IMG/VR virus record: IMGVR_UViG_3300046009_007268
Span: 1-11,432 of that record
Length of the DNA: 11,432 nucleotides
Strand: one strand, 5' to 3'
From: a virus
Part shown: in pieces, positions 1-11,432 of the stretch
Layout: each line of letters opens with the position of its first letter
How positions within the stretch are numbered: the first letter of the stretch is position 1
The notes under the pieces: model-generated
Seen by the model: the letters and a program-made list of their open reading frames with translations, nothing else
What the model was told of the DNA's origin: nothing
Database searches by the model: none
Program-made: the position numbers and the translations under genes

Positions 1-717
1 GGATTTGAAGATTTAGCTGATGAACAAGCTTCAATGAAATGGCAGATGGTTCGTCTTTACGAATACCTCCAAAATCTTCCACTCACAACAATCGTGGTTG
101 ACCATATTGAAGCTGATGATGTTATCGCTTATTTGGCATCCTACTTCAAGGAAAAGGTTTACATCCTATCCAATGACCGAGATTTTCTCCAATTGGTTTC
201 AGAGAAGGTAAACGTTTATGTTCCTACACAGAAAAAAATGTTCAATCAAGAGAATCTGTTGGAACAATATTCCGTGTGGTCTGAAAACTTTACAATCTTC
301 AAGGCATTACTTGGTGATAATTCCGACTCTATTCCAGGAATAAAGGGTATGGGTGAAAAGACAATTCTGAAACATTTTCCTGAACTTGGTGAACGAAAGA
401 AGATTGGATTGGATGAGTTTATACAAATCTGTGAATCATATGATGGTAAGGCAAAGGCAATGTTGGAATTGAAACAATCTATTCCACAATTGAAACGAAA
501 CTATGAGTTGATGCAGTTATTGGATGTGGATATACCCGCATCAATGAAATCAAACATACGAAATATGGTTGATGGTGAAATTTCTAGTATGAATAAGATT
601 CAACTTGATAAATTGTGTTTACAAGATAAACTCCGTGCCGTAATGAATGGTTGGGATGATTGGTTATCCACAAACTTCAAATCGTTGGATTCATATAGAA
701 CTAAAATTGTTGAATAG
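1..717 (+). CDS. 5'-3' exonuclease / flap endonuclease (FEN; T4 RNase H / Pol I 5'-exo family), 5' end cut by the window edge
   Basis: The frame is open from nt 1 (GFEDLADEQAS precedes the tracked Met at 34). IEADDVIA and LSNDRDFLQL match the acidic metal-site motifs. GDNSDSIPGIKGMGEKT matches the helix-3-turn-helix signature of the 53EXO/FEN family. Confidence 0.85.
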   Translation, partial: GFEDLADEQASMKWQMVRLYEYLQNLPLTTIVVDHIEADDVIAYLASYFKEKVYILSNDRDFLQLVSEKVNVYVPTQKKMFNQENLLEQYSVWSENFTIFKALLGDNSDSIPGIKGMGEKTILKHFPELGERKKIGLDEFIQICESYDGKAKAMLELKQSIPQLKRNYELMQLLDVDIPASMKSNIRNMVDGEISSMNKIQLDKLCLQDKLRAVMNGWDDWLSTNFKSLDSYRTKIVE

Positions 718-731
718 ATAGTTATAAACAT

Positions 732-810
732 AAGGCCGTGGAATTCATTTGATTCGTAGTTTGTTTGTCAGCTCCTACAAAATCTCCTCCGATTCCACGG
801 CTTTTCTTTT
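732..810 (+). terminator. Long-loop hairpin plus T-tract after the exonuclease gene (possible terminator or regulatory structure)
   Basis: AAGGCCGTGGAAT (732-744) pairs with ATTCCACGGCTTT (792-804), about 13 bp including one G-U, with a 47-nt loop. It is followed by TTTTCTTTTTATTT. The large loop makes it atypical for an intrinsic terminator. Confidence 0.4.
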
Positions 811-869
811 TATTTGATATTTATTAGTAGACAAACAAACAAATCAAATAAAAGAAAATGGAGGACTAT

Positions 870-1607
870 ATGGTTATCTACAAGACCACCAATTTGGTGA
901 ACGGAAAACAATACATTGGTAAAGATAAACACAATAACCCAAACTATATTGGTTCTGGAACTTATCTAAAAAAAGCAATCAAAAAATATGGAAAAGAAAA
1001 CTTCAAAAAAGAAATACTTGAAGTGTGTTCTTCAAGTAAAGAACTAATGGAACGTGAGGAATACTGGTTGAATTATTATGATGCCGGCGGAGATCCTAAT
1101 TTTTATAATACCCACAATTATAGTTATGGTTGTCCATCTCATTCTGAAGAAACCAGACGAAAAATGAGTGAATCACGTAAAGGAAAACCGAAAAAGAAAC
1201 ATTCGGAAGAATCTAAACGAAGAATGAGTGAATCCCGACGAGGCGAAAAACACTTTATGTATGGAAAACAGGTGAGCACAAAAACCAGAGAAAAAATAAG
1301 ACAATCTCTTATAGGGAAGAAATTTTCAGAAGAAAGAAGACAAAATATAAGTAAATCTCATCTTGGACATATTGTGAGTGAAGATACAAAACGAAAATTG
1401 AGTTTACTAAATTCCGGTGAAAATCACCCTCAATTCAAAGGATATATTATTTGTGTAAGTGGCGAATATAAAGGACAACGTAAAACGTCAAAAGAATGGG
1501 TTATATTGTTGAATACTGGTTTCAGTAGTTTATCAACTCATTTATCGGGTAAGGGATACAAAAAAGGTATTCGTGGAAATTTTTTGAAATGGGAACACGA
1601 ACTTTGA
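870..1607 (+). CDS. Free-standing GIY-YIG homing endonuclease with NUMOD3 repeats (Seg / I-TevI-like)
   Basis: N-terminus VIYKTTNLVNGKQYIGK...EREEYWLNYYDA matches the GIY-(10 aa)-YIG module. Five NUMOD3-like repeats follow (SEETRRKMSESRKGK, SEESKRRMSESRRGE, STKTREKIRQSLIGK, SEERRQNISKSHLGH, SEDTKRKLSLLNSGE), then a C-terminal HTH-like tail. GGAGG at 860-864 sits 5 nt before the ATG at 870; an in-frame ATG at 858 is the alternative start. Confidence 0.85.
   Translation: MVIYKTTNLVNGKQYIGKDKHNNPNYIGSGTYLKKAIKKYGKENFKKEILEVCSSSKELMEREEYWLNYYDAGGDPNFYNTHNYSYGCPSHSEETRRKMSESRKGKPKKKHSEESKRRMSESRRGEKHFMYGKQVSTKTREKIRQSLIGKKFSEERRQNISKSHLGHIVSEDTKRKLSLLNSGENHPQFKGYIICVSGEYKGQRKTSKEWVILLNTGFSSLSTHLSGKGYKKGIRGNFLKWEHEL
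1140..1250 (+). repeat. Tandem ~60-nt DNA duplication encoding NUMOD3 modules 1 and 2
   Basis: cattcTgaagaaACCaGacgaaAaatgagtgaatcAcg (from 1140) versus cattcGgaagaaTCTaAacgaaGaatgagtgaatcCcg (from 1200). Aligned by hand at a 60-nt period. Confidence 0.6.
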
Positions 1608-1608
1608 T

Positions 1609-1637
1609 TTGGTAAATTCAATTCACTTTCGTATATT
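1609..1637 (+). promoter_or_regulatory. Candidate promoter TTGGTA-N17-TATATT upstream of the helicase gene
   Basis: TTGGTA at 1609-1614, a 17-nt spacer, TATATT at 1632-1637, 39 nt before the ATG at 1676. The same architecture and flanks (TTTCG-TATAyT-GTA) occur at 10296-10324 and 10664-10692. Confidence 0.4.
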
Positions 1638-1675
1638 GTAGTCATAACTAAACCAACATATACGAACGATAACAA

Positions 1676-3028
1676 ATGCAAGATACACTTTCGGAATACG
1701 GACATACGTTTCAAACAAAAGTTATTTCCTGTCTTATCAGTGATAAGGCGTTCTTGGGACAAGTCAGTGATTTATTAGAACCTGGATACTTTGAATCTCA
1801 ATACAATAACTGGATAGTAGAGAAGATTTTAGATTACCATCGTAAATTCAAATCATCACCGACGGCCGAAGTTTTCAAATCTCTTCTCATTCCAGTTGAA
1901 GATAAACTACTTCGTGCTGGAATTGTAGATAATCTAAAAGAATCATACAAACTACAAAACTCCCCTGACTTGGAATACGTGAAGAATGAAGTCATTGAGT
2001 TCTCCAAAAATCAACGTATGAAGCAAGCAATTCTTACGAGCGTTGATTTGTTGAAATCTGGAAAGTTTGACCAAATCAAAAAAACCGTTGATTCGGCATT
2101 GAAAGCCGGTAGTGATAAAGACATAGGACACATTTTCAAACTTCACATTGAAGAGAGATATAGTGAAGGTGCAAGAACGTGTGTTGCAACTAATTGGGAT
2201 GTAATCAATGATATAATGTCAGGAGGTCTCGCGAACGGAGAGCTAGGCGTGGTCGTTGCTCCTGCCGGTGGTGGTAAGAGTTGGGGTCTAATCAATCTTG
2301 CTGCAAATGCCGTAAAACAGGGAAAAACCGTTATTTACTATACTCTTGAATTGAATGCTTATTATGTTGGTAGACGTATTGATGCGTATCTCACAAAGAT
2401 ACCATTTCAGAATCTCGGAGAAGAACATTCTCGCGAGAGAATCCAAGAAGTGATGGAAGGACTTGAAGGTAATCTCATTATCAAGTATTACCCAACACGA
2501 ACCGCATCAATAACGACTCTGACCTCTCATATTCAAAAATGTATAGATCAGGGACAAAAACCAGATATGATTGTTCTTGATTATGCCGATCTTATCCGTC
2601 CTGCAAAAGCTAGTGATAAAAGATTGGAACTAAATGACATCTATGAAGACCTACGTGGTGTTGCTGGTGAGTATGATATTCCAATTTGGACTGCATCTCA
2701 ATCTTCACGCTCATCCACCGACGACGAAGTAATTGAAGGAAACAAGGTATCTGAATCTTACAATAAAATTATGATTGCGGATTTTGTTATGTCCCTCTCT
2801 CGTAAGTTGAATGATAAGATTGGTGGAACAGGACGATGGCACATTATCAAGAACCGATTCGGCCCTGATGGTATGACATTCCCAAGTAAGATAAATACAA
2901 TGACGGGACATATTGAAATCTTTGAACCTAACTCTGACATCGGTAAATCTGTTTCACAATCTATGACCGGTGAAGGTATGGTAAAGAAAGCTCTTTCACA
3001 AAAGTTCAAAGAACTTGAAGGTTTCTAA
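1676..3028 (+). CDS. DnaB-like replicative DNA helicase (RecA-fold, no primase domain)
   Basis: Walker A GVVVAPAGGGKSWG, Walker B MIVLDYADL, and a downstream IWTASQSSR motif typical of DnaB / T7 gp4-type helicases. The helical N-terminal domain resembles DnaB_N. Confidence 0.85.
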   Translation: MQDTLSEYGHTFQTKVISCLISDKAFLGQVSDLLEPGYFESQYNNWIVEKILDYHRKFKSSPTAEVFKSLLIPVEDKLLRAGIVDNLKESYKLQNSPDLEYVKNEVIEFSKNQRMKQAILTSVDLLKSGKFDQIKKTVDSALKAGSDKDIGHIFKLHIEERYSEGARTCVATNWDVINDIMSGGLANGELGVVVAPAGGGKSWGLINLAANAVKQGKTVIYYTLELNAYYVGRRIDAYLTKIPFQNLGEEHSRERIQEVMEGLEGNLIIKYYPTRTASITTLTSHIQKCIDQGQKPDMIVLDYADLIRPAKASDKRLELNDIYEDLRGVAGEYDIPIWTASQSSRSSTDDEVIEGNKVSESYNKIMIADFVMSLSRKLNDKIGGTGRWHIIKNRFGPDGMTFPSKINTMTGHIEIFEPNSDIGKSVSQSMTGEGMVKKALSQKFKELEGF

Positions 3029-3084
3029 TGTTGGTCTATATTTATATCATATAAACCAAATTATTTTTTTTTTTGGAGTCGAAG

Positions 3085-3438
3085 ATGAAAGACCTAATAC
3101 AAGAAGGCAGAAAGATACAAGAAGCATTCAAGAAGAATGTTGGTGAGAACATCAATGAAGCCACACCAACTGGTGAAGACATGAAGATTATAAAGCAGAT
3201 TGCTGACATAGCTTGGAATAAATGGAAAACAAAAATGCCAAGTGATTTTCACAATACTTATGGTAATTTACCTAGATCAATTTCCAACAAGTTAACTGGC
3301 GATTTTGTTGACGCTATGGATGCTGAAGTACAGAAACTCTCCATGAATAAAAATTATTTCACTAAGGTTTTTGCAAATCAAAAGTCAGTGGAAGATATGG
3401 TACTTCGAGCATATAAGAAGTATGGTAGCATAATCTAA
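3085..3438 (+). CDS. Hypothetical protein
   Basis: ORF with GGAG at 3075-3078, 6 nt before the ATG at 3085 (the track's start at 3073 is a TTG). It is followed by a strong terminator. No family recognised. The N-terminus MKDLIQE weakly resembles the leaders at 7321, 8093, 9511 and 9891. Confidence 0.6.
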   Translation: MKDLIQEGRKIQEAFKKNVGENINEATPTGEDMKIIKQIADIAWNKWKTKMPSDFHNTYGNLPRSISNKLTGDFVDAMDAEVQKLSMNKNYFTKVFANQKSVEDMVLRAYKKYGSII

Positions 3439-3459
3439 TGTGTCAACATAGAAAATAAT

Positions 3460-3483
3460 AAAGGGAACTTCGGTTCCCTTTTT
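3460..3483 (+). terminator. Rho-independent terminator
   Basis: AAAGGGAAC (3460-3468) pairs with GTTCCCTTT (3473-3481) around a TTCG tetraloop. The T-run extends to 3483. Confidence 0.8.
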
Positions 3484-3499
3484 CATAAAAGGAAAAGTT

Positions 3500-4222
3500 A
3501 TGTCCTACCTAAATATACCAATCCCACCAATAGACGCAATGGTACGTGGGAATTTCTTACGAGACCAACGGGACTCACACGATAAGAAGTTCCCCTGTAT
3601 CATTTTTGGAATGGCATCAATTCCAGCACAAGCCCCACTCTTTCACTTTGTTATGCAAGACGGTGGACTTTGGTGGAGGATGCCAATACACGCTTTCTCT
3701 TGGAAAGAAGATGCAATAGAACAACCACTTGATGAGTTAGTCTTATGGGACTCATTCTCGTATCACGTTGCAGCAACTCAATTCCCTTATCTCAAAAACA
3801 GGAATATGACATTCATTTCCCGTCGGAGAGAAAAATACAAGGGAAGATACTTGTTCACATTAGATTGGGGTGCATCAACAGATTCAGGTGATACAGACTT
3901 TTTATTCTCTGAATACCCGTCTCAACATAAGTGTGGCCACGTTCTTGCGATGGACAATGGAAACTTTGCGATACAACCAAACAATCGTCTTTTACTCCAC
4001 GACCCTTCATTCACAACAAAAGAAGACGTGGTAATAAACAGAATGTATAATAACACTCTTTGGACTGCTGAAAGAAATCCAAGATGGGTAACTCCTGAAA
4101 CGGATAATATGCAGTATGACCACACCGATTTAGAAGCTGGTGAGTCAAATGAAAAAAGGTCAAAAGAGTATGATGAGAAACTAAATGAAAATACGGATAA
4201 GCCATCTAAACGGAAAGTATGA
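3500..4222 (+). CDS. Hypothetical protein (240 aa) with a charged Lys/Glu-rich C-terminal tail
   Basis: Long ORF with AGGAAA 6 nt upstream of the ATG. It has a Trp/His-rich globular part and a tail EAGESNEKRSKEYDEKLNENTDKPSKRKV. No family recognised by eye. Confidence 0.65.
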   Translation: MSYLNIPIPPIDAMVRGNFLRDQRDSHDKKFPCIIFGMASIPAQAPLFHFVMQDGGLWWRMPIHAFSWKEDAIEQPLDELVLWDSFSYHVAATQFPYLKNRNMTFISRRREKYKGRYLFTLDWGASTDSGDTDFLFSEYPSQHKCGHVLAMDNGNFAIQPNNRLLLHDPSFTTKEDVVINRMYNNTLWTAERNPRWVTPETDNMQYDHTDLEAGESNEKRSKEYDEKLNENTDKPSKRKV

Positions 4223-4760
4223 TAATGAAACAGGTGCAGACCTTTGTGAAGTGTTTGGAACACCCGAAGATGAAACCTACAAAGAACTTTTTGAAAAAGG
4301 ATGGCTACCAACAAAAAACGGAGAATGGTATCAATCCCGTTCTTCTCGTGTAAAGATAGATGAGTTATCAGGAACTCGTCGGTATGAAGTTAGAAAGTTG
4401 AAGGTATCAAATGAAGGTGATTGGGAAAAGATATTTGAAGAAAGTAAGTTTCTTTACCCCGATTACCAAGAAGATTATATCAGAACTTGCCTTTCATTCA
4501 ACCACGAGATTTATTACTTTGATGACTCTGTGTTTGCGGTTCTAAATTGGTTTGATGATATTCCATTCTTCTCAACCGTAGTCGGTGGTAGAATGAAGAA
4601 AAATGGAATAACTCCCCTAACTTGTTATTACTTCATCCATAAACTACTTGGACATTCGTACCCTTATTTGTATATTAGTGAATGGTATGAACAGTTCAAT
4701 TTCAAGGCAAACTATCCTAACTTTGAATGGTGGGATGGGGAAAAATGGGTAAAAAAATAA
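4185..4760 (+). CDS. Putative ATE/Bpt-like aminoacyl-tRNA-protein transferase (remote, motif-level)
   Basis: The ATG follows an in-frame TAA at 4182-4184 and overlaps the upstream ORF by 38 nt. KGWLPTKNGEWYQSRSSRV..RRYEVRK, FAVLNWFDDIPFFSTVVG and YPYLYISEWYEQFNFKANYPNFEWWDGEKW resemble my recollection of the ATE_C/Bpt motifs (GFRRSG..Y.P...R, aVav.D...dglSavY and YLGYwI...KM.YK..y.P.E....W). Confidence 0.45.
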   Translation: MKIRISHLNGKYDNETGADLCEVFGTPEDETYKELFEKGWLPTKNGEWYQSRSSRVKIDELSGTRRYEVRKLKVSNEGDWEKIFEESKFLYPDYQEDYIRTCLSFNHEIYYFDDSVFAVLNWFDDIPFFSTVVGGRMKKNGITPLTCYYFIHKLLGHSYPYLYISEWYEQFNFKANYPNFEWWDGEKWVKK

Positions 4761-4868
4761 TTCAGAAAATCACCGATTTTTTCTTTCAAACTTCATACTT
4801 ATCTCTATACGATTCAACTTTGGAATCAAAAATAAACGTTTTTAGAAAAAAAATAATCGGAGACAACT

Positions 4869-6722
4869 ATGGATATTAGCAACCGAATTCTTTCGGATAT
4901 TACTGTATTCCAAAAATACGCGAAATACTTACCCGAACTGAATCGGAGAGAGACGTGGGAAGAGTTGGTGACAAGAAATAAAGAAATGCACCAAAATAAA
5001 TACCCACAACTTCATGATGAAATTGAATCTGCGTATAAGTTTGTCTACGATAAGAAGGTTCTTCCGTCCATGCGATCACTTCAATTTGGTGGTAAGCCAA
5101 TTGAAATCAATCCATCAAGAATCTATAACTGTTCTTATTTACCGATTGACGACTGGCGCGCCTTTGGTGAAGTAATGTTTCTTCTTCTCGGTGGAACTGG
5201 TGTAGGTTTCTCCGTTCAAAAACATCACGTTGAAAAGCTACCACCAATTCACAAACCAAAGAAAGACCGCGAACGTAGATTCCTCGTCGGTGATTCTATT
5301 GAAGGTTGGGCTGATGCAATCAAAGCAGTTGTAAAGTCATACTTTTTCAGCGGTTCATCACTTCGTTTTGACTATTCAGACATTCGTCCAAAGGGAACTC
5401 GTCTCATCACATCAGGTGGTAAGGCACCAGGACCAGAACCGCTTCGTATTTGTATTGAAAAGATTCGATCTATCCTTGAACTAAAGCACGATGGTGAAAA
5501 TCTAACTCCATTAGAAGTCCACGATATTATCTGTCATATTGCAGATGCGGTTCTTGCCGGTGGTATTCGTCGTGCTGCTCTTATCTCTCTTTTCTCTGCT
5601 GATGATAACGAAATGATTTCGTGTAAGTTTGGTGCATGGTGGGAATTGAATCCTCAACGTGGACGTGCAAATAACTCAGCAGTATTACTTCGCAGTAAGA
5701 TTACCGAAGAGTTCTTCAAGGAGTTGTGGAAGAAGATTGAACTTTCAAACGCAGGTGAACCAGGAATTTACTTCTCAAACGATAAGGATTGGGGAACAAA
5801 TCCATGTTGTGAAATTGCACTTCGTCCATTCCAAATGTGTAATCTGTGTGAAGTAAACGCATCAGATGTGGTGGACCAACAAGATTTAGAAGACCGAGTT
5901 CGTGCTGCCGCATTTATCGGAACACTCCAAGCATCATACACCGAGTTCCACTACCTTCGTCCAATTTGGCAAAGAACTTGTGAGAAGGATGCGCTTCTTG
6001 GAATCGGTATGACTGGTATTGGTTCGGGCGTTGTTCAGAAGTTGGATGTCAAAACAAGTGCAAAAATTGCAAAGGAAGAAAACGAAAGAGTTGCAAATCT
6101 TCTCGGTATCAATAAAGCCGCAAGAGTAACTTGTATCAAACCATCAGGAACAACATCATGTGTTCTCGGTACGAGTTCAGGTATTCATGCATGGCACAAT
6201 GACTACTATATCCGTAGAATCCGTATTGGTAAGAATGAGGCACTATACAACTATCTTATCCAAAATCACCCACAATTGGTTGAAGATGAATACTTCCGTC
6301 CACATGATACCGCCGTCGTTGGTGTCCCACAAAAGGCACCAGACCATGCTATTATGAGAACTGAATCTCCAATTCAACTTCTTGAACGTGTGAAGTGGTT
6401 TAGCCAACAATGGATAAAGCCAGGTCATCGTTCGGGTATGAATACTCACAACATTTCGGCAACGGTATCTATCCGTGAACATGAATGGGATGCAGTAGGT
6501 AATTGGATGTGGGAAAATAAGGATTTTTACAACGGTCTTTCAGTCCTCAATTACGATGGGGGCAGTTATAAACAAAGTCCCTTCGAGGATATTACAAAAG
6601 AAGAATACGAAAGATTGATGTCAACACTCCATGAAATTGATTTAAAGAACGTTGTGGAGTATGATGACAACACAGAATTGGCACAAGAAGCTGCGTGTGC
6701 AGGCGGCGCGTGTCTAATATAA
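4869..6722 (+). CDS. nrdJ: Ribonucleotide reductase, class II (adenosylcobalamin-dependent, monomeric RTPR-like)
   Basis: 617-aa ORF with GGAG 7 nt upstream. It carries the active-site-like motifs IYNCSY, GGTGVGFS, RGRANNSAV and TNPCCEIAL (NPC.E thiyl-Cys loop). The C-terminal redox pair CAGGACLI resembles the C-x-G-G-A-C tail of L. leichmannii-type RTPR. No beta subunit gene is adjacent. Confidence 0.85.
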   Translation: MDISNRILSDITVFQKYAKYLPELNRRETWEELVTRNKEMHQNKYPQLHDEIESAYKFVYDKKVLPSMRSLQFGGKPIEINPSRIYNCSYLPIDDWRAFGEVMFLLLGGTGVGFSVQKHHVEKLPPIHKPKKDRERRFLVGDSIEGWADAIKAVVKSYFFSGSSLRFDYSDIRPKGTRLITSGGKAPGPEPLRICIEKIRSILELKHDGENLTPLEVHDIICHIADAVLAGGIRRAALISLFSADDNEMISCKFGAWWELNPQRGRANNSAVLLRSKITEEFFKELWKKIELSNAGEPGIYFSNDKDWGTNPCCEIALRPFQMCNLCEVNASDVVDQQDLEDRVRAAAFIGTLQASYTEFHYLRPIWQRTCEKDALLGIGMTGIGSGVVQKLDVKTSAKIAKEENERVANLLGINKAARVTCIKPSGTTSCVLGTSSGIHAWHNDYYIRRIRIGKNEALYNYLIQNHPQLVEDEYFRPHDTAVVGVPQKAPDHAIMRTESPIQLLERVKWFSQQWIKPGHRSGMNTHNISATVSIREHEWDAVGNWMWENKDFYNGLSVLNYDGGSYKQSPFEDITKEEYERLMSTLHEIDLKNVVEYDDNTELAQEAACAGGACLI

Positions 6723-6786
6723 CGGTGGTATCTATATTTATTTAACAGGGAACTAATCCCGACTATTATACAAACAGGAGAACGTT

Positions 6787-6963
6787 ATGACAAAGCAAGA
6801 ACTATACGAACAAATTACAAATCTGTTCAATGAGTTTACCGTCGGACACAATTCAAAGTTCAAGAAAGGTGCAGGAGACGCTCGTAAGGCGTTAGGTGCA
6901 ATCAAGAAGTTGATCACACCTTACAACAAGGCATCTGTGTCTGAAGGCAAAGAGTCCAAGTAA
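6787..6963 (+). CDS. Histone H1/Hc1-like small DNA-binding protein (58 aa)
   Basis: This ORF is below the track's length cutoff. AGGAG lies 6 nt upstream of the ATG. MTKQELYEQITNLFNEF...KKGAGDARKALGAIKKLITPYNKASVSEGKESK matches the length and the KG..A.ARKA....KL....K.S pattern of ~60-aa bacterial histone-H1-like (Hc1 N-domain) proteins, as recalled. Confidence 0.55.
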   Translation: MTKQELYEQITNLFNEFTVGHNSKFKKGAGDARKALGAIKKLITPYNKASVSEGKESK

Positions 6964-6968
6964 ATCAA

Positions 6969-7169
6969 ATGAAAGAGGAAGATTATTACATAAACGAAAA
7001 CGGGAAGGTGGTATTCACAGAAGAGTACCACCTTTGCCGTTCATTTTGTTGCGGGTCGGGATGTCTTCACTGCCCGTATGAACCAAAACATACAAAGGGG
7101 GTAACGAATGTTGCGATTAGAGAACGAGGTAGATCCGAAGATAACACAACCAACACATCTGAAGGATAA
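6969..7169 (+). CDS. DUF5522-like cysteine-rich small protein
   Basis: EEDYYINENGKVVFTEEYHLCRSFCCGSGCLHCPY matches the recalled DUF5522 signature (DFYY.E.G..VFTE.YHL.RG.CC..GC.HCPY). The C-terminal 20 codons overlap the next ORF. Confidence 0.55.
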   Translation: MKEEDYYINENGKVVFTEEYHLCRSFCCGSGCLHCPYEPKHTKGVTNVAIRERGRSEDNTTNTSEG

Positions 7170-7317
7170 AAAGATTATTGTTAGACGTGGAGATGAGATA
7201 TTTATTTCCAACGTTTTTATCACAGGTGGTACGTGTTTCGTATATTACTATGGGATGTTTATGGAAATCTTTGAAATGGATGGTTGGACGAAATTACCCG
7301 TCGTTTCATATTTATAG
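7108..7317 (+). CDS. Hypothetical small protein
   Basis: AGGGGG at 7094-7099 lies 8 nt upstream of the ATG. Its last codons (PVVSYL-stop) belong to the junction sequence that is duplicated at 8058-8089. No family recognised. It overlaps the 6969 ORF by 62 nt. Confidence 0.4.
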   Translation: MLRLENEVDPKITQPTHLKDKKIIVRRGDEIFISNVFITGGTCFVYYYGMFMEIFEMDGWTKLPVVSYL

Positions 7318-7350
7318 GTAATGATAAAACTCAAAGACATATTATCTGAA
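7286..7350 (+). repeat. Junction repeat, copy 1 (end of upstream ORF, ATG and leader codons)
   Basis: About 57 of 65 nt match 8058-8122 by hand alignment, with a 29-nt perfect core GTTTCATATTTATAGGTAATGATAAAACT at 7303-7331 matching 8075-8103. Confidence 0.85.
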
Positions 7351-8055
7351 ACAGACACAGACCCGAAAAAGGCGTTTGGTGATATTGTGTTTGGTGATAT
7401 AAGTCAAGATGATTTCTTTAAAAAACTCGTTAAGTTACAGGGAAAAACTGGTTCTGAAAAGAATACGAAAATAGAAAAACAGATATTGTCATACATATTA
7501 CAATGGGTACGCACTCCTGATGGAACTATTTCAAACAATTTGTATAAAAATAAAGACTTGTTGAAAAATGCAAAAACTAAATTTCCATCTATATTTAAAC
7601 CAGAAACCCCGAATGGTACAGAAGTCTATCGAGGTTTACAAGATATTTCGAAGAATATTATTTCTCCTCTAAGAGAAAAATCTGACTATAATGATTATAC
7701 TAAATTAAAAATCGGAAAAGAAGTATTTTATAGATATGATAAACCAATATCGTATAAACCACACCGAGATGTTCAAAGTTGGACGTCTAATATAAATGTA
7801 TCTAAAAGATTTGGAGACCATGGTATACTTATTTCAGAACAAAATGATGAGTATTTTTTCAATCAAAAGGTAATGAATTATTTGTTTTCATTCACCAGTG
7901 GTAACGGAAAAGAAAACGAAATACTTCATTTTGGAAAAAAGTATTCCAAACCTGTATTCATAGCGGTAAGTTCAGAACTATTTTGGGAGAACATTATGGA
8001 CAGATTGCCTAACAGATTGTCCAACTACATTGAACCGGACGATGATGACTTATAG
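7321..8055 (+). CDS. Putative R-S-E type ADP-ribosyltransferase (T4 Alt/Mod-like, C3/iota-like motif set) with an N-terminal leader
   Basis: EVYRG (R104), QSWTSN (S153/T155/S156, STS-like) and KENEIL (E198-x-E200). The spacing is about 49 and 45 aa, comparable to R-S-E toxins. The N-terminus is MIKLKDILSE. Confidence 0.6.
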   Translation: MIKLKDILSETDTDPKKAFGDIVFGDISQDDFFKKLVKLQGKTGSEKNTKIEKQILSYILQWVRTPDGTISNNLYKNKDLLKNAKTKFPSIFKPETPNGTEVYRGLQDISKNIISPLREKSDYNDYTKLKIGKEVFYRYDKPISYKPHRDVQSWTSNINVSKRFGDHGILISEQNDEYFFNQKVMNYLFSFTSGNGKENEILHFGKKYSKPVFIAVSSELFWENIMDRLPNRLSNYIEPDDDDL

Positions 8056-8057
8056 AC

Positions 8058-8122
8058 GGACGATATTCCCCGTAGTTTCATATTTATAGGTAATGATAAA
8101 ACTAAAACACATATTAACAGAG
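8058..8122 (+). repeat. Junction repeat, copy 2
   Basis: See copy 1. It includes a relic reading ...TIFPVVSYL-stop (8060-8089) that parallels ...TKLPVVSYL-stop at 7288-7317, followed by ATG and MIKLKHILTE. Confidence 0.85.
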
Positions 8123-9091
8123 GCACTATCAGATATAGTCTGGCACTTCACATCACCCCAAGCTGCTAAGAAGATAATAGAGCAAAACAAGTTTGAGTTG
8201 AGCATAGTGAGTGGTGCAGATATATCAAAGTTTGGTGGTAATAAACAATACTACCTTTCAACCGCTCGCCAAAAGTGGGGTGGTTATGGTAAATCATATG
8301 ATTGCCGTCTTGAGTTGGACGGGAGAAAGTTATCACAACGATATAAGGGTGGTGCGATAGATTACTGGCAGATGGGACCACAAGGTACGGAATACGAAGA
8401 CCGTTTGTTTTCCAATGAACCAACAATTCCTAATGCAAAGAATTACATCAAACGTGTGGACTTGTTCCTAAATGCCTTTGTATACAGGAGTAATATGACT
8501 CAATTGACGGCTGTAATGGATGCCTGCCTAAAAGCAAACATCCAATGTTTTCTATTCAGAAATGAAAAGAAGTTTCAATTGGGTAGAGACGGAGAACTTG
8601 TGACAAAAGAAATAGCGGATTCTTTGAGACAACCAATTGACCCGAATGAAAGTCCATATGTTTCCATGCCACCTAATCCTGAAAGATTAGATAGGTTGGT
8701 TTATATCGCACAAGTCGTCGGTATATCAAAGGAAGAACTAAATACTATCTTCATGTCAAATCAAACAGCTGAGAAAGATTTCAACAGCAGAATGTTACAG
8801 ATGGAACCGGATGATCGTGGGAAGTATGGAACATATAAGGATTACATAGAATCTGGTTGGAAAGAATATGAAAGTAAGTTATGGAATATGAGACTGACTT
8901 TTGGAGGGATGGATGCTAAATCTGTAATAGATTCCGAGATACATAACGCAAAAAGAAAGATGGGGTCTATTGCCCGTGATATTTTGATTCGTATTTATCA
9001 AGAAGGTCGTAAGAATAAAATCACTCCGGATAAGATGATTCCGTTCATTATCCAAAAGGCAAAGGAAAACTCCGAACAAGAGAATGGATGA
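8093..9091 (+). CDS. Leader-bearing hypothetical protein; the N-terminal domain has an H-Y-E-like (PARP/DarT-type ART-like) triad
   Basis: 332-aa ORF. The leader MIKLKHILTE is followed by ALSDIVWHFTS (compare AFGDIVFGDIS in the 7321 gene). IVWHFTSPQAAKKIIEQNKF (H18), KQYYLSTARQK (Y53/Y54, S56) and TEYEDRLFS (E100/E102) follow the order and spacing of H-Y-E ART motifs. No family was recognised for the C-terminal ~200 aa. Confidence 0.65.
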   Translation: MIKLKHILTEALSDIVWHFTSPQAAKKIIEQNKFELSIVSGADISKFGGNKQYYLSTARQKWGGYGKSYDCRLELDGRKLSQRYKGGAIDYWQMGPQGTEYEDRLFSNEPTIPNAKNYIKRVDLFLNAFVYRSNMTQLTAVMDACLKANIQCFLFRNEKKFQLGRDGELVTKEIADSLRQPIDPNESPYVSMPPNPERLDRLVYIAQVVGISKEELNTIFMSNQTAEKDFNSRMLQMEPDDRGKYGTYKDYIESGWKEYESKLWNMRLTFGGMDAKSVIDSEIHNAKRKMGSIARDILIRIYQEGRKNKITPDKMIPFIIQKAKENSEQENG

Positions 9092-9191
9092 AAAAGAAAT
9101 TCTACATTTTGGTAAAAAATACTCCAACCCGATAACGATTGCAGTTGAATTCGCTACATATACTGAATATGTAAAGTTCTATACTAAATAA
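9084..9191 (+). pseudogene. Orphaned ART C-terminal fragment (ExE strand), out of frame with the 8093 gene
   Basis: The +1 frame reads MDEKEILHFGKKYSNPITIAVEFATYTEYVKFYTK. It aligns with residues 197-216 of the 7321 protein (KENEILHFGKKYSKPVFIAV), with 15 of 20 residues identical from the first E. Many differences are synonymous third-position changes (ata/att, ctt/cta, gga/ggt, aag/aaa, tat/tac, cct/ccg, gcg/gca, gta/gtt). Confidence 0.55.
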
Positions 9192-9230
9192 CAGATTGCC
9201 CACCACAAGGTAAATACATGGGAAGTTCGG

Positions 9231-9458
9231 ATGGCAATAGTAAAAAGACAAAAACTACGAGACAACCTCGCAAAAACTTGTTTGGTTTTAGGAACATTCT
9301 TCAATCCACTGGGCTTCGATGCAGCATTTTCCTTCGTGATGAAATTGACAGGAAGCTACTGGATTACAGACGTTATCTTCTATGGGGTTGCGCTGTTATT
9401 TTTTGGATTTTATTTCTTACTTTCCCGTAAGAAAACAAAACCTGAATCATATTTATAG
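9231..9458 (+). CDS. Small membrane protein with two predicted TM segments
   Basis: GGAAG lies 5 nt upstream of the ATG. Hydrophobic stretches CLVLGTFFNPLGFDAAFSFV and ITDVIFYGVALLFFGFYFLL are followed by the basic tail SRKKTK. It ends in SYL-stop, encoded by the TCATATTTATAG motif. Confidence 0.55.
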   Translation: MAIVKRQKLRDNLAKTCLVLGTFFNPLGFDAAFSFVMKLTGSYWITDVIFYGVALLFFGFYFLLSRKKTKPESYL

Positions 9459-9486
9459 AATATAACCATAGTATTTTTTGGAATAT

Positions 9487-9873
9487 ATGATGGAACTGAA
9501 TAAACAACGAATGATGAAACTTGCTGGTCTTTTGACTGAATCTATCAATGAGGCAGTAAAGGAAGTAAATTTTGGTAAAGATCCAAAGAAGTTTGCCAAG
9601 GAATATGATGGAAATAACATGATGTGGAAAGACACAACAATGTTCAGTAAGAAAGATGCAATGAACATTATGAAACAAGCTCTTCCTGATGGTTATAATG
9701 AATTCACTGCTGAATTGATTGACAAATTACCAGCAGATGCAAAGATTCAACTTGGTCGTGAATATAGTGTTTGTCTTTATGTAAAGACGAATACAAAACC
9801 AAGTAAAGCTTCTTTGAAGGCGGATGAACTTGATGAAGTAGAACCAGGTCTATACCGAATTTGGTGGGACTAA
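9487..9873 (+). CDS. Hypothetical protein with a leader-like N-terminus (..RMMKLAGLLTE)
   Basis: The first ATG in the ORF is at 9487 (the track start at 9478 is a TTG). Alternative ATGs at 9511 and 9514 would give MMKLAGLLTES or MKLAGLLTES. No family recognised. Confidence 0.6.
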   Translation: MMELNKQRMMKLAGLLTESINEAVKEVNFGKDPKKFAKEYDGNNMMWKDTTMFSKKDAMNIMKQALPDGYNEFTAELIDKLPADAKIQLGREYSVCLYVKTNTKPSKASLKADELDEVEPGLYRIWWD

Positions 9874-9890
9874 TACAATCGGAGCATGAA

Positions 9891-10238
9891 ATGAAATTAT
9901 CGTCAAGAAAACAATTACTTAGCGAGGCATCTCAAACACTTCAATCACTTCGTGAAGCTGAAGAAAAGATTAGCCAAAAAGTTGAAAACTCTGTAAAGAG
10001 AATGAGAGAAGCCACAAAGAAGGCAAATCGTTCAGAGGCTTTATTTGAACTCGCTAAACTTCTAGCAGAACAAAAGTATTCAAAGATACTTGACCACACT
10101 GCTGAAATCAGAAAGATTGCTGGAACTATGCCTTATGGTATTCAACAGTATGAAAATGAATTGATGACAGAGATGTTAGCCAAGGCAAAACAAAGATTCA
10201 ATGTGAAAGAATACGCCGCTATTTATTCGGCACTTTAA
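9891..10238 (+). CDS. Hypothetical helical protein with a leader-like N-terminus (MKLSSRKQLLSE)
   Basis: GGAG at 9881-9884 lies 6 nt before the ATG at 9891 (the track start at 9861 is a TTG that overlaps the previous gene). It is followed by a strong terminator. Confidence 0.65.
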   Translation: MKLSSRKQLLSEASQTLQSLREAEEKISQKVENSVKRMREATKKANRSEALFELAKLLAEQKYSKILDHTAEIRKIAGTMPYGIQQYENELMTEMLAKAKQRFNVKEYAAIYSAL

Positions 10239-10257
10239 GAAAATTACACACCAGTTC

Positions 10258-10297
10258 AAAAAGTCTCACATTTTCTTGGTGTGAGACTTTTTTATTT
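10258..10297 (+). terminator. Rho-independent terminator
   Basis: AAAAAGTCTCACA (10258-10270) pairs with TGTGAGACTTTTT (10280-10292), 13 bp with a 9-nt loop, followed by a T-run and ATTT. Confidence 0.8.
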
Positions 10298-10324
10298 GGA
10301 AATGTCAGATTTTTTTCGTATACT
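10296..10324 (+). promoter_or_regulatory. Candidate promoter TTGGAA-N17-TATACT
   Basis: TTGGAA at 10296-10301, a 17-nt spacer, TATACT at 10319-10324. It sits directly after a terminator and 29 nt before the ATG at 10353. Confidence 0.45.
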
Positions 10325-10352
10325 TGTATTCAATCAATTACAAGTTAATAAA

Positions 10353-10652
10353 ATGACACCGAGAAAACAAAAGAAAATTGACGAATTTCAAATGAAAGCA
10401 CTTGACGAAATGTTCCGTCGTGTTGGATTTGAAGGATATGACGAAGAGTTCGCTCAACAACCTTATTGGTTTACTAAACGTGAATGGACTCTTGAAGAAG
10501 ATGTTGATTTTACAAAGTGGTTCATTGACGAATATGTAAAGACATTCCGTGAACCAAAGTATATTGCAAAGGAAGTTGCAGGTTGGTTTGTATTTAACTA
10601 CGGTTGGAAAACAAAGAAGATGTATGATAAAGTAGATAATTTTATTCGGTAA
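10353..10652 (+). CDS. Hypothetical protein (99 aa)
   Basis: The track ORF begins at 10281, inside the terminator/promoter region. The first ATG downstream of the promoter is at 10353 (MTPRKQKKIDEF...). The protein is Trp/acidic-rich. No family recognised. Confidence 0.6.
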   Translation: MTPRKQKKIDEFQMKALDEMFRRVGFEGYDEEFAQQPYWFTKREWTLEEDVDFTKWFIDEYVKTFREPKYIAKEVAGWFVFNYGWKTKKMYDKVDNFIR

Positions 10653-10663
10653 GAAAAATAAAT

Positions 10664-10692
10664 TTGGAATTGTGGAATCTTTTTAGTATATT
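10664..10692 (+). promoter_or_regulatory. Candidate promoter TTGGAA-N17-TATATT
   Basis: TTGGAA at 10664-10669, a 17-nt spacer, TATATT at 10687-10692. GTATATTGTA is identical to the 10-mer at 1631-1640. Confidence 0.4.
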
Positions 10693-10713
10693 GTACATAC
10701 TTATTGATATAGA

Positions 10714-10890
10714 ATGGATTTAGACATAACTTTTAGGACAGGAAATTCGATGAACAACTCACTACATACATGGCAATCATATCCGGCGATGACACAACAA
10801 GTCACTCGCAAAGGAGCCATTTTTTGTGGTATCACATTTAATAGTGAGTATCTCCCAACATCAAAATCCTGTAAGTTGTCTATGACCTAA
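10714..10890 (+). CDS. Questionable 58-codon ORF (the region may instead be a non-coding transcript)
   Basis: An open ATG...TAA frame, verified codon by codon. It has no Shine-Dalgarno sequence and no recognisable protein features. It lies between candidate promoter 10664-10692 and terminator 10911-10950. Confidence 0.25.
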   Translation: MDLDITFRTGNSMNNSLHTWQSYPAMTQQVTRKGAIFCGITFNSEYLPTSKSCKLSMT

Positions 10891-10910
10891 TCAAAAAGAC
10901 ACACCAGTTC

Positions 10911-10950
10911 AGAAGGACTTACAGGATAAAACTTGTAAGTCCTTTTTGTT
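10911..10950 (+). terminator. Rho-independent terminator
   Basis: AGAAGGACTTACAGG (10911-10925) pairs with CTTGTAAGTCCTTTT (10932-10946), about 13-15 bp including G-U pairs, with a 6-nt loop ATAAAA. The T5 run is followed by GTT. Confidence 0.75.
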
Positions 10951-10963
10951 TATGTGGATAACT

Positions 10964-10994
10964 TTGTAAGTCCTTTGATTTCAAAGACTTACGG
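10964..10994 (+). other. Stable hairpin reusing the TGTAAGTCCTTT unit (no T-run)
   Basis: TTGTAAGTCCTTTGA (10964-10978) pairs with TCAAAGACTTACGG (10981-10994). There is one bulged C and a very small loop. Confidence 0.5.
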
Positions 10995-10999
10995 TGAAA

Positions 11000-11030
11000 A
11001 TCCAAATTATGACAAAAAATTAATTTGGAT
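11000..11030 (+). other. Perfect 10-bp inverted repeat hairpin
   Basis: ATCCAAATTA (11000-11009) and TAATTTGGAT (11021-11030) are separated by 11 nt. Confidence 0.5.
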
Positions 11031-11059
11031 ATATCGGAAAAATTCCATAGGTTTGTGTC

Positions 11060-11075
11060 TCCTTCTTCGGAAGGA
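11060..11075 (+). other. UUCG-tetraloop hairpin just upstream of the tRNA cluster
   Basis: TCCTTC-TTCG-GAAGGA: a 6-bp stem with a TTCG loop. Confidence 0.5.
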
Positions 11076-11101
11076 CGTTCATTGAAAACTTATTACGCCA
11101 A

Positions 11102-11185
11102 GCCGCGTCGGTGCAGTTAGAGAGGCACATCGGTCTGTAAAACCGATTCTATTCAGATGAGTAGGTGCGAATCCTACACGCGGCA
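11102..11185 (+). tRNA. tRNA-Tyr (GUA), class II with a long variable arm
   Basis: Acceptor GCCGCGT/ACGCGGC with discriminator A. D stem GTGC/GCAC. Anticodon stem TCGGT/ACCGA with loop CTGTAAA. 14-nt variable arm. T arm GTAGG-TGCGAAT-CCTAC; the G at T-loop position 55 is unusual. Confidence 0.8.
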
Positions 11186-11194
11186 CAAAATTAT

Positions 11195-11269
11195 GGGCTG
11201 GTAGTGCTAACGGGAACACACGGGTTTTGCAAACCTGAATTGAGGGTTCGATTCCCTCCTGGTCCACCA
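11195..11269 (+). tRNA. tRNA-Ala (UGC), with encoded CCA
   Basis: Acceptor GGGCTGG/CTGGTCC includes a G3:U70 wobble and discriminator A73, both Ala identity elements. Anticodon stem CGGGT/ACCTG with loop TTTGCAA. T arm GAGGG-TTCGATT-CCCTC. CCA is at 11267-11269. Confidence 0.8.
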
Positions 11270-11273
11270 TAAT

Positions 11274-11345
11274 GCCGAGATAGCTCAGTTGGTAGAGCGC
11301 CAGTTTGAAGCACTGGTAGCCGTGGTTCGATTCCACGTTTCGGCA
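11274..11345 (+). tRNA. tRNA-Phe (GAA)
   Basis: Acceptor GCCGAGA/TTTCGGC. D arm GCTC-AGTTGGTA-GAGC. Anticodon stem CCAGT/ACTGG with loop TTGAAGC. T arm CGTGG-TTCGATT-CCACG. Discriminator A. Confidence 0.85.
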
Positions 11346-11352
11346 CAAACAT

Positions 11353-11425
11353 CGCGGGGTAGGGAAGTGGCTAACCCGTCGGGCTCATAACCCGAAGATC
11401 GTGAGTTCGAATCTCACCTCCGCAA
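11353..11425 (+). tRNA. Initiator tRNA-fMet (CAU)
   Basis: The 5' end CGCGGGG and the anticodon arm TCGGGCTCATAACCCGA are identical to E. coli tRNA-fMet as recalled. There is a C1:A72 mismatch and three consecutive G:C pairs at the base of the anticodon stem. T arm GTGAG-TTCGAAT-CTCAC. CCA is not encoded. Confidence 0.8.
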
Positions 11426-11432
11426 CAATCAT

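Follow-up and report, generated by a model that had tools for sequence, protein, structure and literature searches.

A shared N-terminal decapeptide as a candidate capsid-targeting tag in a gene-cassette locus of a distant T4-like phage

The proteins that enter a host cell together with phage DNA are hard to learn for uncultured phages; for T4, the question was solved by way of a ten-residue tag. In this report, we examined a virus sequence of 11,432 nucleotides (IMG/VR record IMGVR_UViG_3300046009_007268, positions 1 to 11,432; hereafter “the window”), in which two adjacent genes, gp7321 and gp8093, begin with nearly the same ten residues and are unrelated beyond them. The source is a distant T4-like freshwater myophage related to Microcystis phage Mel-JY01. 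The two genes lie in what is likely a T4-type hyperplastic internal-protein locus of a distant lineage, the novelty being a different and much more widespread leader. Tentatively, and at a little under an even chance, we propose that this leader is a portable capsid-targeting and cleavage tag found across a large, mostly uncultured T4-like clade, and that genes acquiring it become injected effectors. The window also holds a gene relic at 9084–9191, directly behind gp8093. Taken alone, that relic is ordinary gene decay; the leader, rather than the relic, is the part worth following. Below, L-numbers denote contigs or stretches that carry related loci (L027 being Mel-JY01) and P-numbers denote homologous proteins; gp7321 and its relatives form the A family, gp8093 and its relatives the B family.

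All genes of the arrays that hold gp7321, gp8093 and their relatives begin M-I-K-L-K-x-I-L-x-E. Within the A family, this leader is nearly invariant though the bodies are only 30% identical; positions 6 and 9 vary, and L4, I7, L8 and E10 are kept. When A-family and B-family profiles were aligned with hhalign, only the first 14 residues matched, and the protein similarity between the families is thus confined to the leader. Its codons vary synonymously (ATA/ATT/ATC, CTA/CTC/CTG/TTA, GAA/GAG), and it is therefore the peptide that is under constraint. For this reason, the idea that the leader is conserved purely as DNA was rejected. Further, the leader is common. We scanned viral contigs (sampled as L037–L154) with a strict back-translated pattern and found it in at least 119 stretches; all counts are lower bounds. 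Among the matches listed, 134 of 141 open an open reading frame (ORF) of at least 60 residues, and 128 distinct leader-bearing bodies make up at least 76 clusters without relation to one another. The decapeptide string was not found in the literature searched. In AlphaFold2 (AF2) models of gp7321 and gp8093, residues 1–10 are disordered.

These properties recall the capsid-targeting sequence (CTS) of T4. The CTS comprises residues 1–10 of IPIII, with targeting dependent on residues 4 and 7 and processing on residues 8 and 10, and the T4 gp21 protease cuts after L/I-x-E (PMC9026906). The T4 internal proteins are diverse defence proteins that have the CTS as their sole shared part (PMC3012670); IPII and IPIII both begin MKTYQEFIAE. 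The leader follows the CTS pattern, having hydrophobic residues at positions 4, 7 and 8, Glu at position 10, and the habit of preceding otherwise unrelated proteins. The necessary kind of machinery is encoded by Mel-JY01, which has a gp21-type Peptidase_S77 protein (E 6e-30), Gp23 (E 1e-79) and Portal_T4. A link to the head itself comes from L042 (IMGVR_UViG_3300017784_009607, reverse strand, 1466–2686), where a head-module gene starts MIKLKNILLE and has as neighbors ribosomal protein S21, a scaffold-like gene and the Gp23 capsid gene. The Mel-JY01 ortholog of this gene starts MYEYVEYILE, which is CTS-like and ends I-L-E. The leader may then be a capsid-targeting propeptide that a gp21-type prohead protease would remove after L-x-E10; the cassette products would be effectors packaged in the head and injected along with the DNA, and new genes would acquire the tag by recombination at the junction of promoter and leader.

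Three considerations count against this proposal. First, we infer all of its biochemical steps, namely packaging, leader cleavage and, for the putative enzymes discussed below, ADP-ribosylation. Second, the window contains no head genes, and its link to a gp21-type protease runs through a relative whose proteins are 62–69% identical. Third, a FEN/RNase H homolog has a looser N-terminus, MMIRKYKDLLKE, that is likewise rich in K, L and E, so that part of the leader pattern could be compositional.

Among known systems, ipI, ipII, ipIII and their replacements in T4 and the T-even phages offer the nearest likeness. There, too, unrelated effector bodies follow an N-terminal tag of about ten residues. 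The tag closes with L/I-x-E, and both MKTYQEFIAE and the MIKLKDILSE of gp7321 are hydrophobic at positions 4, 7 and 8. Like the slot described here, the T4 loci differ greatly even between closely related phages, and they are placed away from the head module, with tRNA genes and GIY-YIG endonucleases nearby. The preliminary description of this DNA had compared it with the T4 internal-protein loci for their conserved flanks and swapped interiors, an analogy that holds up well. The differences are that the locus under study has another tag sequence and belongs to the very distant Mel-JY01-like lineage, that its tag occurs far more widely, heading at least 76 unrelated clusters of bodies among viral contigs, and that its bodies are larger putative enzymes instead of small basic proteins.

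A competing explanation is that the shared 5' module is an expression element only, consisting of a promoter and an A/T-rich translation start. The decapeptide would have another role, for example in translation efficiency or as a degron or assembly handle, and the cassettes would be ordinary early genes with products that are not packaged. We judge this unlikely. The sequence ATATTTATA occurs four times in the window, each copy lying on the + strand shortly before a gene; in 11 loci, among them Mel-JY01, it is found 34 times on the gene strand versus 6 times on the opposite one, 3–40 nt upstream of ATGs. It is probably a promoter element, judging from this placement, and it precedes many genes that lack the strict leader. 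The array sits amid replication and nucleotide-metabolism genes, not head genes; however, the T4 ip genes are likewise outside the head module, adjoining tRNA genes. ModA and ModB, to which the sequence match is closest, are proteins that T4 does not package (PMC9503650), and the similar N-terminus of the FEN homolog also favors an expression role. An invariant peptide with synonymous codons, on the other hand, speaks against a purely nucleic-acid constraint, and some L028 genes keep the leader although they overlap their neighbors and have no motif upstream. Moreover, the conserved positions 4, 7, 8 and 10 are the functional positions of the T4 CTS, and the head-module gene of L042 bears the leader. 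Targeting to the capsid is our preferred, if tentative, reading of these ten residues.

Other N-termini related to the leader stand behind ATATTTATA in the window: those of the genes at 3085–3438 (MKDLIQE) and 9511–9873 (MMKLAGLLTE), and that of a small gene at 9888–10238, MKLSSRKQLLSE. In L028, genes with an MKLSSRK-type N-terminus form tandem arrays of their own.

We are fairly confident that the region 7286–9232 is a hyperplastic cassette slot bounded by a left flank (L) and a right flank (R), of which R begins TAAATAACAGATTGCC. The features of the slot, its surroundings and a second slot are as follows.

7108–7317, + strand: g69, the conserved gene upstream of the slot; its homologs precede the slot in L009, L019, L020, L028 and L032, and its final ~30 nt are left flank L.
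7286–7320, + strand: left flank L, copy 1, recognized from repeat D1 and made up of the g69 3' end, ATATTTATAG and GTA; promoter-like motif at 7308–7316.
7321–8055, + strand: gp7321, A family, 244 residues; leader MIKLKDILSE at 7321–7350.
8000–8092, + strand: composite R+L junction between gp7321 and gp8093, recognized from repeats D1 and D2; a degenerate right flank, ACAGATTG..., at 8000–8047 and left flank copy 2 at 8058–8092, with ATATTTATA at 8080–8088.
8093–9091, + strand: gp8093, B family, 332 residues; leader MIKLKHILTE at 8093–8122, TGA at 9089–9091.
9082–9083, + strand: non-homologous joint between the gp8093 body and a P0038-type remnant; homology to L009 begins at 9083.
9083–9191, + strand: pseudogene relic, equivalent to the final 36 codons of an A-family gene of the P0038 type.
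9084–9191, + strand: ORF of 35 codons, in the +1 frame relative to gp8093.
9185–9232, + strand: right flank R, TAAATAACAGATTGCCCACCACAAGGTAAATACATGGGAAGTTCGGATGG, overlapping the start of g75.
9231–9458, + strand: g75, a small conserved gene downstream of the slot, kept in L009, L019, L020 and L032.
9449–9873, + strand: third copy of ATATTTATA (9449–9457) and g120 (ATG at 9511), with the leader-like N-terminus MMKLAGLLTE.
3038–3438, + strand: fourth exact copy of ATATTTATA (3038–3046), upstream of g3073 (ATG at 3085, MKDLIQE...).
700–734, + strand: second cassette slot, empty in the window, between the FEN/RNase H gene and a GIY-YIG endonuclease gene.

Repeat D1 (7286–7349 versus 8058–8121) has a length of 64 nt, an identity of 89%, and a perfect core of 29 nt, GTTTCATATTTATAGGTAATGATAAAACT; an 18-mer from this core occurs exactly twice in the window, versus 0.03 occurrences expected by chance. 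D1 spans PVVSYL and the stop of ORF 7108–7317, then GTA, the start ATG, and the opening ten codons of gp7321 and gp8093.

The boundaries of the slot are given by an empty site. In L019, 7318–9184 (1867 nt) is replaced by TTG, with both sides 93–99% identical to the window; the site reads ...TCATATTTATAG-TTG-TAAATAACAGATTGCCC..., and it thereby defines L as the g69 3' end plus ATATTTATAG and R as 9185–9232. Other relatives fill the slot with arrays of two to six different leader-bearing genes. L009 has P0038, a 222-residue paralog and a GIY-YIG endonuclease, L028 has six different leader genes, and L157 has a zeta-toxin-like kinase with leader, a gp8093 homolog and a solo leader scar; in L026, seven leader genes stand in tandem. 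The R flank recurs behind every cassette in L009, and array junctions are R+L composites, an intact example of which is L009 3115–3201. The window's own junction at 8000–8092 is a degenerate composite, in which the C-terminal 18 residues of gp7321 read through an old R flank.

Marks of past exchange and of decay are visible in several arrays. P0009 is a chimera, identical to gp7321 for 55 residues and 95–100% identical to P0011 from there on; this crossover some 55 codons into the gene indicates that the 5' region acts as a recombination handle. The scar in L157 (5021–5110) is a lone degenerate leader fused to the R flank after the B gene. A P0038-like gene in L020 (2621–2650) has had its start ATG destroyed, and an A-family gene behind P0063 in L028 (7015–7060) starts with a CTG inside a CTGA overlap. 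In Mel-JY01, a truncated B-family gene of 60 codons with an intact leader (60923–61105) lies between two full-length copies and is followed by an unrelated 280-residue ORF behind its own ATATTTATA.

The second slot, at 700–734, retains a degenerate motif, ATAGTTATA, at 718–726. At exactly the equivalent position, L016–L019 carry the A-family cassette P0012 (234 residues) in a backbone that is otherwise collinear. Homing endonuclease genes keep company with both slots among the relatives: a GIY-YIG/NUMOD3 gene is found in the slot of L009 (3159–3925) and of L011 directly behind the R+L junction, and another adjoins the P0012 cassette in L016–L019. The L009 gene precedes a diverged copy of the R flank, and its R+L junction is intact. 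In the window, the nearest such gene is at 858–1607 (GIY-YIG/NUMOD3), not at the 7286–9232 slot.

The preliminary description had reported the repeat with its 29-nt core, its extent from PVVSYL and the stop through the ATG into the leader, and the end of protein similarity between the two genes after the leader; all of these are present, the profile alignment ending at residue 14. It had also predicted fixed flanks and variable bodies among relatives, as is now seen in the empty site of L019 and in the arrays of two to six genes, and a role for the leader region as a recombination handle, for which P0009 provides the example. Its conserved 5' junction does serve as such a handle, but much of that junction is the promoter-like motif that stands before many genes.

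Array turnover may proceed by the phage's own homologous recombination across the flank-plus-leader repeats of ~30–65 nt, either by unequal crossover or through excised circles, as has been proposed for the PeSL cassettes of T4; the neighboring GIY-YIG homing endonucleases may assist. Promoter-early stem-loop (PeSL) cassettes are the means by which modules are shuffled in T4-type phages (Arbiol 2010, PMC2839356; Comeau 2014, PMC4122927), and by analogy theirs is the closest known mechanism. In both systems, the accessory ORFs of hyperplastic regions are bordered by conserved regulatory repeats in intergenic DNA, which take in the start of the expression signals of the downstream gene and bound the insertions, deletions and replacements that distinguish near-identical genomes; here, the empty and filled slots differ between exact flanks. 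The likeness is incomplete. A consensus scan found no sigma-70 -35/-10 pair at 7286–7320 or 8058–8092, where the strand-specific ATATTTATA stands instead, no stem-loop was found (all junction folds had z-scores of -0.7 to +0.1 versus shuffles), and the junctions have no terminator-like site. Strict PeSL membership was rejected on account of these absences. Unlike a PeSL, the repeat also takes in coding sequence, namely the leader and the 3' end of the gene before it. Cassette turnover can be followed closely at this locus, where backbones that are 93–99% identical show the site empty or filled, together with chimeric alleles, scars of solo leaders and a relic that can be dated. For the shuffling of accessory genomes in phages, it is a helpful natural case.

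That relic is the 3' end of a third cassette. ORF 9084–9191 encodes DEKEILHFGKKYSNPITIAV, opening MDEKEILHFGKKYSNPITIAV..., and is paralogous to KENEILHFGKKYSKPVFIAV at the C-terminus of gp7321. Over 20 codons, the proportion of differing synonymous sites (pS) is 0.77, which is saturated, and that of nonsynonymous sites (pN) is 0.16; the differences are thus mostly synonymous. The actual source is a P0038-type gene, P0038 being an A-family member of 225 residues that is 37% identical to gp7321, has a C-terminal stretch of 35 residues identical to the ORF product, and is intact in L009–L013 behind a homolog of ORF 7108–7317. Window positions 9083–9198 match L009 2308–2423 at 116 of 116 nt (blastn). 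The homology begins abruptly at 9083, and the DNA upstream of that point is unrelated to L009 and, in every frame, to P0038. Given this onset at 9083, gp8093 has its final two codons and its stop (AAT GGA TGA, 9083–9091) in P0038-derived DNA, and now borrows its stop codon from the remnant. The same joint exists in the sister lineage L032/L033, where the B gene is ~92–93% identical in DNA and the tail is more decayed, having lost its ATG (now ACG) and a further 29 nt including EILHFGKKYS. ORF 9084–9191 is the decaying dead 3' end of a P0038-type family member and not a coding feature. The tail comes from an anciently separated paralog of gp7321, with truncation as a later event.

How was the joint formed? 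gp8093 is essentially full length with respect to its homologs. A single deletion, running from its last codon into a downstream P0038-type paralog, would account for the arrangement, and we consider deletion the most likely origin of the 9082|9083 joint because one event suffices and because L028 and L029 have a B gene with an A-family gene behind it. Alternatively, a donor leader and gp8093 body might have displaced a resident P0038-type gene from its leader to codon 190, by a homologous left crossover in the junction or leader and an illegitimate right end at 9082|9083. The shared junction and leader (29 nt perfect, 64 nt at 89%) would furnish the left crossover, P0009 shows that crossovers take place in the conserved 5' part, and in L009–L013 P0038 lies directly behind the left flank. 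Replacement nonetheless requires two events where deletion needs one. Further, the remnant is third in the window array, after gp7321 and gp8093, instead of directly behind g69; the B-then-A order of L028/L029 is a substrate for simple deletion; and the parental states that replacement predicts are found in no recovered contig. Metagenome contigs scanned with gp8093 yielded no confirmed locus and no parental arrangement, and viral contigs scanned with the B-family profile yielded only distant jumbo-phage homologs. We therefore think replacement the less likely of the two.

The available data fit deletion and replacement alike. The relic matches the L009 allele at 116 of 116 nt though the joint predates the ~7% DNA divergence from L032/L033. 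Full identity together with an older, shared joint points to a recent exchange, by gene conversion or recombination, between phages that circulate together.

It is very improbable that the tail is functional, either as a +1 programmed frameshift fusion to gp8093 or as a 35-residue peptide translated by coupling at ATGGATGA. The ATG at 9084 does overlap the end of gp8093, and the remnant does equal the intact allele across 116 nt. The loss of that ATG (to ACG) and of 29 nt encoding EILHFGKKYS among others in L032/L033 argues against function, and the frameshift fusion was rejected on account of this decay. In addition, 35 residues that form two beta strands have no plausible independent fold, and no slippery sequence is evident by eye at 9080–9091, where no formal frameshift-site scan was made. 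A sequencing or assembly indel that splits one longer gene has a next to negligible probability: the frame offset is all that favors it, 7280–9235 is identical in nine assemblies from different samples and pipelines, so that the joint is not a sequencing error, the gp8093 homologs P0061 and P0062 terminate at the same residue, and no frame upstream of 9083 is related to P0038.

With regard to the relic, then, the preliminary description was confirmed in its observation and partly supported in its interpretation. The TGA at 9089–9091 and the +1-frame tail paralogous to the gp7321 C-terminus are as it had reported, as is the mostly synonymous nature of the differences. Its tandem duplication of an ADP-ribosyltransferase (ART) gene is right insofar as the tail is a relic of the same family and wrong insofar as that relic is no recent duplicate of gp7321. 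Similarly, the tail does derive from a gene that is intact elsewhere, but the body of that gene need not have been replaced, given that one deletion gives the same product. A 1-nt sequencing error fusing the tail in frame, which it had allowed for, is excluded by the nine assemblies.

Both cassette products are putative enzymes. The A family counts 59 close homologs of gp7321, and 710 representative clusters in a profile search, all unnamed. gp7321 has the motifs Y103-R104-G105, S153-W-T155 and E198-N-E200, of which R104, S153 and E200 are invariant among 30 aligned homologs; their order and spacing (49 and 47 residues) are those of R-S-E ARTs. That clade (Mod / Alt-VIP2 type) has an aromatic-R-G on beta 1, an S-x-S/T on beta 3, and an E/Q-x-E where beta 5 begins. 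The AF2 model (predicted local distance difference test (pLDDT) score 89) has strands at 101–106, 151–155 and 200–204. An hhalign comparison of the A-family alignment with T4 ModB gave P = 4.3e-4 (probability 34%, 109 columns) with YRG and S-x-T in register, versus P = 0.3–0.6 for three controls; alignments with T4 ModA and Alt profiles were limited to the YRG region. gp7321 is also of ModA/ModB-like size. We consider it rather likely, on these motifs and this profile match, that gp7321 is a Mod-like R-S-E ART.

Other searches do not favor this prediction. No ART family was matched by gp7321 and 30 A-family members in Pfam, NCBIfam or PHROGs, save that one member matches DRAT at E 0.042, and 0 of 89 A-family homologs have a precomputed Pfam domain. 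Foldseek searches of the Protein Data Bank (PDB) with gp7321 returned nothing below E 0.1, PARP1 being listed at E 1.5–4 and a template modeling (TM) score of 0.2; PDB sequence searches with single proteins and profiles gave chance matches only, BFVD matches are uncharacterized proteins, and tblastn with gp7321 against phage records gave no match. The designation “ART” for gp7321 in the preliminary description is thus unproven, having motifs and the ModB profile match behind it and neither Pfam, PDB-sequence nor Foldseek support.

The comparison with T4 extends to the fate of these enzymes. T4 Alt is packaged in the head and trimmed by gp21; ModA and ModB have no CTS, unlike the leader-bearing gp7321, and gp7321 differs from all three in matching neither a Pfam ART family nor a solved ART in Foldseek. 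According to annotation, T4 has a broken partial alt copy (alt.-1/alt.-2) beside alt, which parallels the relic described here. The A-family domain further occurs as an unannotated module in P0165 (1632 residues) and P0181 (859 residues), which are polyvalent proteins such as those described in phages and conjugative elements (Iyer et al. 2017, PMC5512222). Its companion modules in these are ART-PolyVal, GNAT, SprT-like and DUF5661, with recurring ...DGGE(V/I)... linkers between them. Polyvalent-type proteins are predicted to be packaged in the virion and injected (PMC9503650). In the locus under study, by contrast, the modules are not fused: every one of them has a gene and a leader to itself. 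Six proteins of ~450–475 residues (P0087–P0089, P0091, P0094 and P0096) score as two A-family domains and resemble fusions of tandem paralogs.

gp8093 has an N-terminal alpha/beta domain of ~180 residues and a helical C-terminal domain (AF2 pLDDT 84), and the B family comprises 27 homologs with the same leader. The N-terminal domain is found in many large phages, including Mel-JY01. Its best Foldseek match is DarT, the DNA ADP-ribosyltransferase of DarTG (7omw; probability 0.98, E 0.033, TM 0.28/0.43), and an invariant H18-x-T20 and an acidic E100-x-E-D-R recall ARTs of the H-Y-E type. Three of 26 B-family members faintly match Tox-ART-HYD1, at E of 0.05 or above. Possibly, then, gp8093 has a DarT-like domain of the ART fold. 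To be set against this are the marginal nature of the DarT match (E 0.033, TM 0.43), which has no sequence-profile support, and the absence of any significant gp8093 match in Pfam, NCBIfam or PHROGs. The B family gave no match to DUF4433, to PDB sequences or to the ART-PolyVal profile, and hhalign of the family against an ART-PolyVal segment and against ModB found nothing. The resemblance to DarT has limits as well: there is no DarG partner here, and gp8093 has the extra helical domain. The “foreign body” of the preliminary description is indeed unrelated to gp7321 beyond the leader, but it may itself be of the ART fold.

With regard to its wider setting, the window is syntenic with Mel-JY01, the sole cultured relative found, with 69% identity in the ribonucleotide reductase (RNR) and 62% in DnaB; Mel-JY01 carries three leader-bearing B-family genes behind its RNR gene, at 60276–62718. 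The locus had zero blastn matches among 50,697 phage records. The RNR of the window (4869–6722) is of class II, B12-dependent and RTPR-like. A cluster of four tRNAs (Tyr, Ala, Phe, Met) is at 11102–11426, and an Rfam scan finds only these four. In relatives, a T4-type RNA ligase 1 and PNKP are encoded downstream.

If the leader is a capsid-targeting tag, then it reveals a whole “ejectome” from sequence, made up of dozens of unrelated families that include putative ARTs, a DarT-like protein and a zeta-toxin-like kinase. The 7286–9232 slot would be integron-like, its cargo being injected effectors. A widespread second tag, beside that of T4, would allow injected effectors, including candidate anti-defence enzymes, to be listed from metagenomes. 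It would also supply a handle for packaging foreign proteins in cyanophage-like viruses.

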